Shown here in pieces: positions 4,394-43,890 of a stretch of 64,000 nt of DNA (position 1 is its first letter; every line of letters begins with the position of its first letter). A program made the position numbers and the translations under genes. Under the pieces are notes generated by a model that saw nothing but the letters and a program-made list of their open reading frames with translations, was not told the DNA's origin and made no database searches. Source of the stretch: Chrysomallon squamiferum (taxonomy: Eukaryota; Animalia; Mollusca); the NCBI GenBank assembly GCA_012295275.1, contig CM022675.1, forward strand, positions 3,782,001 through 3,846,000, written 5' to 3'.

Positions 4394-7300
4394 TTAAGAT
4401 GTATTTTCATCTTCGTCATCCACGACGAAATAAATATTTCCATCATTTTGAGAGAAATTCAGTTCTTCATCTACGTTCTCAAAGTTGAGGTCGTCTGCTT
4501 TTAATGAATACTGAGATGAATTTACGTCAGTGTGGTTATATAAACTGGAATCACAGAAATTTGAAACGACGGCTTCTGTTGTGTCGTAGTCGTCGCCGTT
4601 TTGTTTACCAAGATGATGGTACACATTCGATGAAGTTGCTGTCGGTATTTTTCTGACTGTCGTATCGTAAACTCCATCATCAGCGATGTTAATGTGCATC
4701 TTCGGTGTGTTTGTCTTCATTCTTTTCCCGTCTGTTTTGTCGAAATCGCCACCATTATGTTTATCTTCAGTAACGTGACGATTTTCTTGAATCGCTTCTG
4801 CTGTTTCGTAATCTGAATCATTACTAGCATTCACGTAACTATTCTGTCTGCTGTCATTGGTTAGAGGGGAACAACTCTGTTTATCAGTTTGAAGTAGAGT
4901 TACCGTCCCTCGTTTAACTTCGTTAATTTTACTGTAATAGTCGTCATCTTCTCTTTCGTGTGACATGTCAGAAATTACGTAACTTTTTACGTCATTAGAC
5001 AGGTTCTCCTTCATGGTTTTATTAATTCCCGCTTTAACAGTTTGTTCAGATTCATATTCTGCAGTTTCAGTGTTGTAACTTTTGTTTATGTGACCTTTGT
5101 TTAAGCTCTGCTGTGTTTTTTTAACAGTCTCTCTCTGAAAATTAACTTTCAGATCTGATGATGATGTTTTTTCTTTTCCGAAACAAAAACGTTTTGTTCT
5201 GTAACATAACATAGAATGAAAATTGAAAATATTCAAAATATACGTATTATTTATTTATTTATTTTGTATAATTTAAAAAAGAAAGAAAGAAAAAGAGGAA
5301 TTTACTGTTTCGTAACACCTCAAATATTTTAATACATTTCAGTAGTATCCGTGTTTTCTACGATTTTCGCCGTTTAACTAATTAATATACAGTAAAATAA
5401 AATATAAAGAAGTAAATAAATAAATACATAAATAAATAAATAAATATGTTTCCTTACCGTTTCATCCAGACGAAAATCAAGATAGATGTTACCATAACAA
5501 CAATAACAGCAACAACACTGCCGCCAATCAAAGCTAAAATTAAAAAAGTTATAAATATTGTTACATCTGTTTATTTACCTACCTCTCAGCTTGTTTCAAA
5601 ACTTTTAAAATCATTTATCTATAATCCAATAGTCGTAATTGAAAATGAATGAAACAGACCAGTTGTGGTCGTTCTTTAAAAATTAAACAAGCCGCCAGAA
5701 AGGAAAAACAGAAAAAAAAAAAAAAAAAAAAAATAAAAATAATATTAATTAGTAATGATAATATTAATAATAAAACTTTTCCAAAAATTAAGAAAAAAAA
5801 AAAAAAAAAAAAAAAAAAAAAAAAAAAAAAAAGAATTAAGTAAATAAAAATAAAAGACTAAAGAAAAACAAAGTGAATATTAAAATAAAGAATATGTTTA
5901 AATGACCTGCATTGTTTTTGGACAGGTTCGTCTGCTGTTTTCGGCCTTTTTCAAAAAACGTTGACGTCGTCAGAAAGCTAAATTGTGTTGTTGCGAGGTC
6001 CACTGTTTCTTTTGTTGTCGTTGTCGTTGTTACCGTCGTGTTAATTTTTAGTAGTTTGGTTTCGTCGTCAGAAAGTTAAATTGTGTTGTTGAACCGATGT
6101 TGTTAGTTGTTTTATCTGTTTAAAAAATTACAGATTTCTTTTTTAACAGAAAACCTTTATAGTGAAATGGTGTATCGTCTTTATCATTATTATCAACATT
6201 ATCAACATTTTCAACATCATCTTATTTCTTATCAATTACCATTATAATTATTTTTAATCTAAGATCAAGATGTGTGTATGTATTTCCCTTCTGACTGTTT
6301 CAAAACTACTACTACTACTACTACTACTACTACTACTACTACTACTACTACTACTACTACTACTTGATTTCACTGAGAAATAATAATATTTCTCTTATCG
6401 AAGTTTACTTTTCACTGAAACTATTCTATTTGTACGTTAAAAATCTAACATTAATTTATAGACGTTAACATTCGTATGGAGCTGAGACTATATTGCTGAT
6501 TACCTCCCATCAGTCACATGCTTATTTGTCACACAGTTTATAACAACACAGGTCAGTGTTTAGTGCACAGTTAATCCTCTGCCCGTTACCCAGATAAAAA
6601 ATGATACGATCCCACATTGTTGTATATTGTATAAACCGGCAATAAATAAATGAAAGAAAGGCTTATAATTAGTTATACATTATATGTCATCCACATAACT
6701 TGATCACTTAAGTTTCAGTAAATGGCCTACAGTATAGTTTTTCAACTGGGGTTCGCGAGATAGTTCTTGAGCGAGTGTATTGTTTACCTTTTTTCAACTT
6801 GACTTGGAAAGAGGAATAAATAAAAACATGTAGATTCATTTCGGACCCGTCACAGTGAATATAGATTCCTTTTGTACTGTGTTTGGTTGATGAAAATATG
6901 GTGACCCTAGATATTATTGAATCAAATTTTTTTAAAGGGCATCGTCGGTCATACTGAGTTGCTCATAAGGGGTCGCGGTATGAAAAAGGTTGAAAACCAG
7001 CGGCCTGCAGCATCTAAGAACTGATTCTCTGCTGCAGTTGATGCAGATGTTGTTGGTGCGTGGCTCATCGGTCTCATGGTGGTTCCAGAGTGGCAGGGGG
7101 AAGCTAGCTTCATCATCAATCCAGTTGACGACCATGTAGTCACTGAACTCTTGGGCACGAGGAACATTTGGTGTCGAGGACATGATTTCAATCCATGCGT
7201 CCTGAATTTTGTTTGTTGTTGCAGTAGAGCTAGTCTGGCTAGTTGATTATTCTTCAAACAGGGGTGCCGGGCTTCCTTACTGCGTGACTGCTTTCCAAAT

Positions 7301-10300
7301 TGTATGTCTATAGACCATATAACTTTTGGGAGGATACCATATTGCTATATATGTCTGTTCGTGTATTAGGGGTGTGTCTAGTGTATTATGCATGTTTTTT
7401 ATGCGTGTATTTATATATCTAACCATGTATCTGTGATTCTGTATGTCTGTGTACTGCTTTCTATAATAGATTCTTCTTTTTAATCAAAAACTGACCCCCT
7501 CCACACAATACTTACAAACTTGACAGACAGCAGTAAATTTACTCGATGAATTTTTACGAATGTTTTCACTGATGTTTATCAACCTTGCAATACTTAGATG
7601 AGTTGTTCCATAACTGCTGGGACGATTTGTAACAAGATTTCCTTAAAAAAAAAAAAAAGATTAAAATTTGTTTTCTTTTCAAGGCTGTGAAATATTTGAA
7701 ATCTACCGTTAGGCAGCGTCATCATACATAATTATATAATCATGTTTATAATAAGGGCAGTTAGCAGACAGAGAGATAGTTAGACAAGAGAAAGATAGAC
7801 AGAAGTTTTCTAAGTGTCTTTAAGTGTGTACGTATTTCTATACATTTGTGTATTTGTATGTGGCTGAACATTTTGCCAACGAACAATTAACAGAGTGGAT
7901 ATTTTGACATTTTTAATTATTATATCTTCTTTTTAATTTATTATTATTATTAATATTATTATTGTTGTTGTTGTTGTTATTTTTATGTTTGTGGGTTATG
8001 TTACACTGGCTGACTTAAAGTGGCAGTCCTCTTTGTCTTCCAGGCTGTACACATCCATGTCTCTTCAAAGTGGACAAGAAACTGAGAAAGAAATTTATCT
8101 GTTTCATCACCGAGACAGAGTCAGTTCAGCTTTCAGCATCTTCACTGAAATACGCCTGCCTCGGTCATCTGTATTTGTACATAGCCTCGTTATATAACAC
8201 ATATATCTTAATAAACTGTTTAAATACTCATTACATAACACATGTATCTTAATAAACTGTTTAAATCCTCATTACATAACACATGTATCTTAATATAGAA
8301 TTTAAATCCTCATTACATAACACATATATCTTAATATAGAATTTAAATCCTCATTACATAACACATGTATCTTAATATAGAATTTAAATCCTCATTACAT
8401 AACACATGTATCTTAATGTAGAATTTAAATCCTCATTACATAACACATATATCTTAATATAGAATTTAAATACTCATTACATAAAACATACATCTTAATA
8501 TAAAATTTAAATCCTCATTACATAACACATATATCTTAATATAAAATTTAAATACTCATTACATAACACATATATCTTAATATAGAATTTAAATCCTCAC
8601 TACATAACACATGTATCTTAATATAGAATTTAAATACTCATTATATAACACATACATCTTAATACAAAATTTAAATCCTTCTAGTTTTACATCATAGAAA
8701 CTATTTGCCAGCTCGACCATTTGTCCATTCGGTTAAATGCCTGTCACTGCAATGTGCGTATATATATATGTTTGTATTTATGTATGTTTGTATTTATGTC
8801 TGTTTGTATGCTTGTAAATATGTATGTTTGCATTTGTGTCCGTGTCTGTACATCTGAGTTTTCTTACCATCAATCCACCTCCATTCAATGTTTCGTTTCA
8901 GTCCAATCCAATAATTTTCCCGCTGTCTGTAATTACTGTTAATCAGTGTTTTCAGCTCTGACTCTGCTGTGTCTGTCAGTTTTGACAAATTTCCACCACA
9001 TTGTACTTTAGCTTCTTTCCACAGTAAGTTTCGTTTTAAAATACATACAGTATTTCTGCAGACATTTCTCATATTGGTTTTAAAGTGTTTTCCTGAAACG
9101 ATGAAAAAAATGTCAGTGAAATTACTCCGTGTATTTTAACAACTCTGCTTTTGATTGTTCTTTTCAAAGTGAACTGATCATGTTACCATTTTGAAATAAC
9201 AAAAATAATATCAGTTAAATGTACACAAATTCAAACATACAAACATACCACTCACGCACAAACGTATATGGTATCAAAATGGAAACAAATAAACAAACAA
9301 ACAAAGAAAAAAATAATAAATAAATAAATAATTACATAAATAAATAAATGAATGAATGAATAAATAAATAAGAAAGTAAGTAAATAAATAAATAAACAAG
9401 ATACTTGGACAAACAGCTGACGTCCACTGTGTTTTACAGACTGCAAATCGAAGGGTGATTTTGTTGTTTTCATATTTGACGTAGCCGCAGTTGCTGTTTT
9501 TACTTGTTCTGCTTTTTACATCTACAGAAACAGGCAGATCTGAAATAAAATATTTCTTTAATATAAAAACAGTGTCTGTTTGATACTACTACTACTACTA
9601 CTACTACTACTACTACTACTACTACTACTACTACTACTACTACTATTACAACTGATATTACCACTACCACTACAACAGCTATTACTACTGCTTCTTCTTC
9701 GTCTTCTTCATCTACAACTATTACTACCATCACAACTACTATTATTTCAGCCAGTATTACTTCTGCTCCGTTTGTACATCAATATCTACAGCAACAACTA
9801 CTACAACGTTTACTGCTAGTATTATTACTACTAGTACTATTAGTTCTACAACCTTACAAACATTACCTTAGCTATTACTACTACTATTTATACTGTCTCA
9901 AATACTATTATTTCTACCACTGCTGCTACTACAACTAGTACTGCTGCTACTATTACTGTTATTACTACTATGACTACTACTTCTACTGAATACTGATTAC
10001 AACAGCTACTACCAATACCACTTTCCGGATCCGATAAGAAAGAAATAAAGTTAAAAATAGAGATAAAAAGCTTACACTTCTACTACCTATATATTATCAA
10101 AATAATATTCTTACCCAATTCATAAACAGAAACAACGTCCGCACCACCACATAACTCGTCATAGGTCCCAGGACAGCGTACTTTGTTTACATTCTTGAAT
10201 GTTGTATCTAACTTAGAGTTTGTTCTATGTTGTGGAAGACTGCAGAAACATTTTCTTCCCTGCAATACGACAGTATGTAACTGAACTTTATTCTTTTAAT

Positions 10301-43726: not shown

Positions 43727-43890
43727 TCAATCAGAACTTTCTAGAACAAAATAAACATTTTTAATGCCTTCAGAAACGTTGTTGTTGTTGTCGGAATTAC
43801 CGTCCACGTTATCGGAAATTTCTGATTTCCTAGAAGGAACTTGATTTGTAAGTTGGGGCAAAATGTCTATACAGACTGGGGAGTGGTAAA
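43727..43890 (-). pseudogene. Relic fifth receptor copy E: only the tail C-terminus and downstream flank remain
   Basis: NQVPSRKSEISDNVDGNSDNNNNVSEGIKNVYFVLESSD* is homologous to the C/D C-termini, with an indel just upstream. Homology stops near 43890, while the downstream flank (about 42100-43720) aligns with those of C and D. Confidence 0.85.

Follow-up and report, generated by a model that had tools for sequence, protein, structure and literature searches.

Few molluscan signalling receptors for the recognition of non-self are known, mostly as single examples. The oyster proteins CgCLec-HTM and CgCLec-TM1 are membrane receptors that signal through tail tyrosines (PMC12842671, PMC13027682); CgCLec-HTM uses a hemITAM (half of an immunoreceptor tyrosine-based activation motif, ITAM) and Syk (PMC12842671). 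In Biomphalaria, the GRC/PTC1 and PTC2 clusters are tandem arrays of fast-changing, single-pass genes for parasite recognition (PMC4361660, PMC7494358, PMC10875847), and polymorphic clusters of this kind govern schistosome resistance (PMC7494358). The sections available to us describe FN3, Ig, C-type lectin (CTL) and TMEM154-like domains for these clusters and make no mention of WSC domains; nor does WSC occur in the available descriptions of the Gigantopelta receptors (PMC7895826). Here we analysed a 64,000-nt stretch of the genome of the mollusc Chrysomallon squamiferum ("the window"; contig CM022675.1, positions 3,782,001 to 3,846,000), which contains a cluster of four genes, A to D, and a relic, E, all on the minus strand; coordinates are positions in the window. 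The cluster belongs to a real, old and uncharacterised receptor family of molluscs and a nemertean, with expression of C-like and D-like members. The oyster receptors have one C-type lectin-like domain (CTLD) with QPS and WHD motifs, one hemITAM and, as far as the available text of the two papers goes, no WSC domain, whereas the window genes encode a WSC cassette, tails with 7-20 tyrosines and two CTLDs, neither of which has those motifs.

Comparison of the window with itself showed that ~4.2-12.3 kb duplicates 13.6-21.8 kb and that 23.4-31.9 kb duplicates 32.4-41.5 kb, with a third, partial copy at 42.9-43.9 kb. The four genes lie head to tail, have GT-AG introns and share the intron phases 1,1,0,1,1,1,1,1,2. 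Exon identities are 58-94% within the subfamilies A/B and C/D (exons 2-7 and 9; the exception is exon 6 of C/D, 33/69) and 18-51% between them. A profile built from gastropod and nemertean relatives alone (A10), run on 1936 six-frame peptides of the window, matched exons 2, 3, 4 and 6 of all four genes (E-values 3e-25 to 2e-8), so that the genes are not a product of chance. Neither the gene reading nor this profile found further family exons in the window beyond A-D and the relic. An earlier interpretation of the DNA letters (the sequence-only reading) had described four ten-exon genes with identical phases plus a relic, in two subfamilies, as a clustered birth-and-death locus. The subfamilies and the relic were recovered, and the birth-and-death reading was supported. 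The four genes and their shared phases also stood, but not the full set of ten-exon genes: exon 1 of B was not found, A and C are frame-broken, and only D is intact.

The stretch 25650-35550 is partly covered by five sequencing runs, four of RNA from one study and one of unknown kind. The contigs of three RNA runs and of the run of unknown kind were compared with genes C and D, a comparison that carries no information about tissue or level. C-like and D-like transcripts are spliced at the predicted junctions in all three RNA runs, as a true gene cluster had been expected to show. The contigs end at predicted exon bounds and then run into the neighbouring exon. One contig of run X2 passes from exon 4 to exon 3, its 119 bases containing 0 other letters (loose ends at 29531 and 29915), record 19 of X3 joins a C-like exon 4 directly to a D-like exon 3, exon 7 is bounded on both sides in contigs of X1 and X2, and a contig of X3 contains exon 2 plus 36 further letters. 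Contigs of X1 and X2 also lead from exon 10 to a transmembrane (TM) exon at 35523. By eye, their TM end departs from both C and D at ~9/31 letters, and at least one more expressed paralogue must therefore lie outside the window. Two RNA contigs cross the frame-break of C with 0 gaps (26169-26338, 1 other letter; 26118-26355, 3 other letters), and the short tail of C is therefore real in other samples. In run X5, the depth over exons was far above that over unique introns, a figure that is not a copy number. In one X1 contig, the C-like end of a tail at 26043 is joined through 12 other letters to a D-like part at 34895; this mixture of the two tail exons (34526-35522 and 25718-26616) is probably a further paralogue or a recombinant allele.

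A profile of the four exon-2 peptides was searched against 1.84 billion representatives and yielded 96 matches, of which 20 were checked by name and 66 with Pfam; 17 were judged to be members by sequence. All named relatives are annotated as "uncharacterized". They are from Gigantopelta aegis (LOC121385366, LOC121385519, LOC121385671), Haliotis rufescens (LOC124111981, LOC124111983, LOC124125500), H. rubra (LOC124285970, LOC124286173), H. cracherodii, H. asinina and the nemertean Lineus longissimus (LOC135483519). The relatives are collinear exon by exon: window profiles of exons 2-6 and of the tail match the proteins P0001 and P0005 in order, and the identity to P0005 in conserved exons is 38-47%. 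The Lineus protein aligns with P0005 over 338 residues (24% identity, E-value 2e-13) and passes the Pfam cut-offs of both Lectin_C and WSC. In Gigantopelta three loci lie on the same contig, as do three in H. rufescens, and both sets are probably clustered as well. The sequence-only reading had proposed a lineage-specific family that matched no named one. The first half of this proposal is contradicted by the relatives in gastropods and a nemertean, which are collinear over their full length; lineage-specificity holds at most for local expansions, and the exon-2 tree is too weak to demonstrate even this. The second half was borne out: every relative with a name is annotated as uncharacterised, and the literature searched, with most subscription journals outside reach, contained no description of a CTLD-WSC-CTLD family with a tyrosine tail or of a half-swapped single-chain CTLD pair.

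Other searches were less productive. No cephalopod or bivalve name was among the 20 of 96 matches looked up, which does not imply absence. Word-index searches with exon 2 of C and with the exon-2 alignment found nothing, and of the 7997 candidates scored with the full-length alignment, P0005 and P0110 alone were recovered; all of these are weak negatives. An Atlas feature search with the P0005 ectodomain gave no score above 0.82, and among the structure rows the best was an unnamed mollusc cluster (TM-score 0.45, a lead only). One metagenome scan contained no family match, and another gave a single match of 16 residues, L001, which was rejected, with no other exon nearby. In the exon-2 tree, 3 of 16 branches were starred, and the relation of A/B and C/D to the gastropod genes was not resolved.

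The ectodomain contains three folds, two CTLDs and a WSC cassette, where two had been counted originally, and the cassette is flanked by the two halves of the first CTLD sequence. Pfam matches cover the first half of Lectin_C in exons 2 and 6 and the second half of WSC in exon 4; the cysteine and strand pattern in the alignment with relatives marks exons 5 and 7 as second halves of CTLDs. The CTLD fold is also evident in models of relatives, which match solved CTLDs with Z-scores of 12-13. For the WSC fold, the P0005 model matches Wsc1 (7pz2) with a probability of 1.00 and a TM-score of 0.68, the family profile matches 7pz2 with an E-value of 8e-6, and the 6 cysteines are kept. The cassette is inserted at an intron position that also separates exons 6 and 7, and exactly exons 3-4 are absent from the abalone isoform P0089; the cassette likely arose by exon shuffling, to judge from this exon structure. 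Further database isoforms (P0104, P0081, P0103, P0105 of H. rufescens LOC124111983, P0099 and P0023) lack exon 5, exon 6, these two together or exon 7 without loss of frame, and splicing could vary the ectodomain.

Only one of nine full-length relatives, the Lineus protein, passes the Pfam cut-off for WSC (PF01822), and five of nine pass that for Lectin_C. Pfam-based censuses such as PMC10140915 may therefore undercount the family. In its accessible parts, that census reports very small CTL repertoires in cephalopods and WSC once among uncharacterised bivalve CTL architectures; one of its supplements contains no WSC, and its figure 7 may depict a bivalve family member.

The sequence-only reading had assumed glycan binding by default. 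None of the four genes has an EPN/QPD or WND motif (Ca2+ site 2) in exons 5 or 7, the sole EPN (exon 2 of A) precedes the WIGL-type strand and is not at the sugar site, and the best solved-structure matches of the family profile are NKR-P1A, CD69 and Ly49 (E-values 4e-11 to 4e-8). From these sequence features, a protein or a Ca2+-free glycan is more likely to be the ligand than a classical Ca2+-sugar epitope.

The most unusual feature, which the sequence-only reading overlooked, is the predicted pairing of the CTLD halves. AlphaFold models were generated for the relatives P0005 (36-row alignment, predicted TM-score (pTM) 0.47) and P0086 (12 rows, no window sequences, pTM 0.42). The predicted local confidence (pLDDT) of the ectodomain is mostly 80-94 outside loops for P0005 and mostly 60-90 for P0086. 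In the P0005 model, all 50 listed CTLD matches extend from residues 28-35 to residues 345-358 (88-114 residues aligned; top Z 12.2, root-mean-square deviation (rmsd) 2.5), and a repeat of the comparison gave the same result. All 50 listed matches of the P0086 model extend from 17-33 to 341-349 (top Z 12.7, rmsd 3.5); 84-119 residues are aligned per match in the two models. The matches span the first and the last half, and exons 2 and 7 are therefore predicted to form an outer CTLD, leaving exons 5 and 6 as an inner, circularly permuted one. The cysteine comparison covered 13 genes and excluded isoforms, truncated rows and the P0102 orthologue. The C1 of exon 2 and the C4 of exon 7 are retained in 13/13 genes, whereas the C4 of exon 5 and the C1 of exon 6 are jointly lost in D and P0082, and one of these two is lost in P0089. 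The hinge after the WIGL-type strand has 5-6 residues in 8/8 window exons and 3-6 in 13/13 matches of relatives, compared with 7 or more in 92/104 matches from 79 other CTLD proteins. Because the paired cysteine loss and the shortened hinge agree with the models, they support the swap, and we consider a half-domain swap probable.

The same exons could instead encode two ordinary tandem CTLDs, one of exons 2 and 5 with WSC in a loop and one of exons 6 and 7, the swap being a modelling artefact. Indeed, exons 6-7 align end to end with single CTLDs in sequence (Pfam 2-106/107 in P0005 and P0041), and with shallow alignments the predictor can confuse homologous halves. Several further points weigh against the swap: only P0005 and P0086 were folded, both relatives, and no ordinary tandem-CTLD control was included; the aligned ranges show only their two end residues, so that the exact hinge is unseen and a swap of the last strand alone would also be compatible; exon 6 of P0082 is perhaps absent from the gene model only; and the hinge controls are mostly prokaryote-type CTLD proteins, selected with a slightly stricter pattern. 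When exons 2 and 5 of gene C were predicted as a complex, neither pairing was favoured (score 0.28), and the exon-skipping isoforms are likewise neutral. However, the tandem arrangement leaves unexplained why the models of two relatives that are only 22-24% identical have the same nested span and why the hinge is short in both halves. It would also leave two orphan cysteines in D and P0082, where the swap leaves none, and we regard it as rather unlikely. For the half-domain swap there is a parallel in the snake-venom CTLD dimers, non-sugar-binding pairs swapped at the long-loop pole, which the accessible part of PMC6468738 ties to linker deletion. There, two secreted chains swap a loop, whereas here one membrane chain with a WSC insert would swap half-domains; beyond the CTLD fold, the likeness is one of analogy. 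If true, this would put a very well studied fold to a new use, as a CTLD pair half-swapped within a natural single chain and containing a circularly permuted domain.

The TM segment is uncharged in all four window genes (best 19-residue hydropathy 2.6-3.1) and in 10/10 relatives, and the juxtamembrane motif R.[KR]RFCF occurs in all four, both as previously noted; 7/9 mollusc relatives have a basic-CF motif. A non-catalytic tail with tyrosine motifs and 11 or more tyrosines had also been proposed. The number applies to A (13 in 267 residues), B (13 in 253) and D (20 in 331), but not to C, in which a tail shortened to 131 residues has 7 and another 9 are in the now untranslated frame. The tails are non-catalytic as proposed, and the motifs themselves are non-random and conserved in relatives. 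Acid-flanked tyrosines, [DE]Y[DE], occur 3, 3, 3 and 8 times in the window tails (shuffle means 0.2-0.8), Yxx[LI] 2, 3 and 5 times in A, B and D, and the paired unit YxH[LI]...YD (Yxx[LI]-x5-8-Y[DE]) once in A, once in B and three times in D (shuffle means 0.02-0.07); the short C tail has none, and four are in its lost frame. These patterns were picked after viewing the window tails, and relatives are the fairer test: a matching paired unit is present 1-8 times per tail in 9/9 mollusc relatives (shuffle means up to 0.03). A has one hemITAM-like site, ITAM-spaced pairs with YD as the second half occur in the window tails, and 4/9 mollusc relatives contain the canonical ITAM pattern. In the Atlas, the D tail is nearest to an unnamed mollusc cluster (0.90), with SCIMP and A36R as weak leads (0.75 and 0.79). 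Judged by their motifs, the tails likely signal through phosphotyrosine. Arguing against this, a canonical ITAM is absent from 5/5 window tail pieces, ITIM (the inhibitory counterpart), YxN and NPxY in the window tails are not above shuffles, and the nemertean Lineus tail contains none of the paired motif.

On balance, we somewhat favour the view that the genes encode type I membrane CTLD recognition receptors with phosphotyrosine output. The two CTLDs, predicted to interlock by swapped halves around the WSC cassette as a single-chain dumbbell with the outer domain beside the stalk, would bind an outside ligand, and binding would cluster the receptors. The juxtamembrane cysteine would be palmitoylated, the acid-flanked tyrosines would be phosphorylated by Src-type kinases, and SH2 proteins would dock at the paired Y-x-H-[LI]...Y-D units, so that the outputs of the paralogues would differ with the number of units. 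An immune or microbe-sorting function is the likeliest, with about an even chance of being correct. More tentatively, and in our view doubtfully, the genes might represent an ancient lophotrochozoan class with a snaclec-like, half-swapped dumbbell plus WSC, independent tandem expansions and paralogues tuned by the number of paired tyrosines (long or short tail, possibly secreted), i.e. a counterpart of the natural killer (NK) complex that sorts microbes or non-self cells and is largely missed by Pfam lectin counts.

The ratios of nonsynonymous to synonymous changes (dN/dS) are 0.80-1.05 for A/B and 0.30-0.95 for C/D, with few changes and significance not assessed; values of 0.3-1.05 in recent pairs indicate neither diversifying selection nor clear constraint, which, like the frame-breaks in two of four genes, weighs against the favoured view. 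Most of the cluster might be decaying duplicates of one working gene, as relic E, the lost disulfide in D and the A/B ratios near 1 would also suggest. Yet the transcripts are spliced in all RNA runs compared, the C/D ratio is 0.49 for exons 6-7 and 0.30 for the TM exon, and cysteines are lost in pairs, which makes decay very unlikely. The Yxx[LI] motifs are of a type that binds clathrin adaptors, and they could be endocytic sorting signals of uptake receptors and not phosphotyrosine docking sites. Most tyrosines are, however, in the acid-flanked context, and the up to 8 repeats per tail in relatives exceed the needs of sorting; such a function seems highly improbable. Receptors for cell-cell recognition or guidance in development, nerve or skin could use the same tail signalling with a self-protein as ligand and no immune role. 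The NK-type CTLDs without a Ca2+ site as best solved matches, the fold match of WSC with the developmental receptor Kremen and the weak adaptor-type tail likeness to SCIMP and A36R are compatible with this. Nevertheless, local expansions, relics and truncations are found in three lineages, and such repeated changes are more typical of host-microbe receptors; in addition, exons 6-7 diverge fastest in both pairs, so that we regard a role of this kind as unlikely. Together with introns 5-6, exons 6-7 form the most diverged part of both pairs, which may reflect a ligand surface or patchy gene conversion.

Compared with known systems, the closest likeness is to the gastropod and nemertean relatives, which share the half order CTLD-N, WSC, CTLD-C, CTLD-N, CTLD-C, the stalk, the uncharged TM and the tyrosine-rich tail. 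The window genes differ from them in that their exon 7 has lost its inner cysteine pair, and Lineus differs in its full WSC domain as well as in its tail. To judge from their sequences, the window genes are not classical C-type lectins, single-CTLD hemITAM receptors, polycystins or Kremens. They share the CTLD fold of the Ca2+-dependent lectins but not the EPN/QPD and WND motifs, and the ITAM/hemITAM receptors Dectin-1, CLEC-2 and CgCLec-HTM have a single CTLD instead of two plus WSC. PKD, REJ, GPS, kringle and CUB domains of polycystin-1 and Kremen were not found by Pfam in the full-length relatives scanned, and there is only one TM. NK-complex receptors (NKR-P1, CD69, Ly49) are similarly clustered with unequal outputs, but they form dimers of type II chains, with a single CTLD and either short ITIM tails or charged TMs. 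The adaptors LAT, PAG and SCIMP have palmitoylated multi-tyrosine tails, but no ectodomain. Weak TMEM154-like TM matches, a generic signal, were limited to P0023, P0099 and P0041; the absence of WSC from the available descriptions would set the Biomphalaria clusters apart.

The gene models are compiled in Table 1. Exon 8 of A has 209 nt after an internal duplication, and its frame is broken, with a stop inside. The frame is kept if this phase 1-1 exon is skipped or the AG at 6002 is used; with the main acceptor, the product would be secreted or decayed. The break could also be an assembly error. For B, the exon-1 region of A has no non-repeat match near the assembly gap. Two possible first exons, near 12330 and 21800, were dismissed by eye, as their phase is wrong. 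Intron 7 of A contains an insertion (6932-7344) with a short, minus-strand, transposase-like frame seen by eye, which is not in B. Intron 6 carries an 82-base tandem array in A (8185-8679) and a different, AT-rich array in B (16900-17850), and a 113-base segment of A intron 3 (10582-10694) has an inverted copy with 97% identity upstream of A (13073-13185).

Table 1. Positions of the cluster genes, their exons and related features in the window
Feature	Position	Strand	Description
Gene A	4394..12741	-	10 exons
A exons 1-5	12741-12672, 11603-11385, 11007-10856, 10259-10115, 9539-9405	-	exon 1, signal peptide
A exons 6-10	9092-8868, 7641-7516, 6115-5907, 5533-5458, 5198-4394	-	exon 8, stalk, frame-break; exon 9, TM; exon 10, tail
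Gene B	13872..21270	-	exons 2-10 in frame
B exons 2-6	21270-21052, 20711-20560, 19884-19740, 18524-18387, 18113-17889	-	
B exons 7-10	16149-16024, 15498-15382, 14947-14872, 14634-13872	-	exon 9, TM; exon 10, tail
Assembly gap, 200 N	21942-22141		expected site of B exon 1
Gene C	25718..31294	-	10 exons, short-tail form
C exons 1-5	31294-31228, 30434-30210, 30052-29916, 29529-29400, 29138-29004	-	exon 1, signal peptide
C exons 6-10	28736-28512, 28325-28185, 27770-27714, 27191-27116, 26616-25718	-	exon 9, TM
C exon 2	30210..30434	-	CTLD N-terminal half; Pfam Lectin_C 3-57/107, E 9e-5
C exons 3-4	29400..30052	-	WSC cassette, phase 1 in/phase 1 out, 6 cysteines; exon 4 Pfam WSC 47-82/82, E 0.0045
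C exons 5-6	28512..29138	-	CTLD C-half, then CTLD N-half; predicted inner circularly permuted CTLD
C early stop	26222-26220	-	exon 10, after frame-shifting deletion relative to D
Gene D	34526..40834	-	10 exons, complete and unbroken (sole such gene of the four)
D exons 1-5	40834-40768, 39927-39703, 39318-39182, 38712-38583, 38347-38213	-	
D exons 6-10	37801-37571, 37282-37157, 36659-36570, 35925-35850, 35522-34526	-	exon 9, TM; exon 10, tail
Relic E	42919..43890	-	final ~39 codons of C/D-type tail (43846-43727), with 3' flank; upstream exons absent from window

Small exons of unrelated genes seem to flank the cluster (1-3700, plus strand; 44500-50000, minus strand). Further along is a single-exon gene for MGAT2 (N-acetylglucosaminyltransferase II; 54356-55540, minus strand; Pfam E-value 3e-121), the 5' end of which carries 39-base repeats (55478-55713). 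An intronless dienelactone hydrolase gene (60125-60832, minus strand; Pfam E-value 3e-44), the exact sequence of which is not in the protein collection, has a GC content of 45%, compared with 29% for the window.

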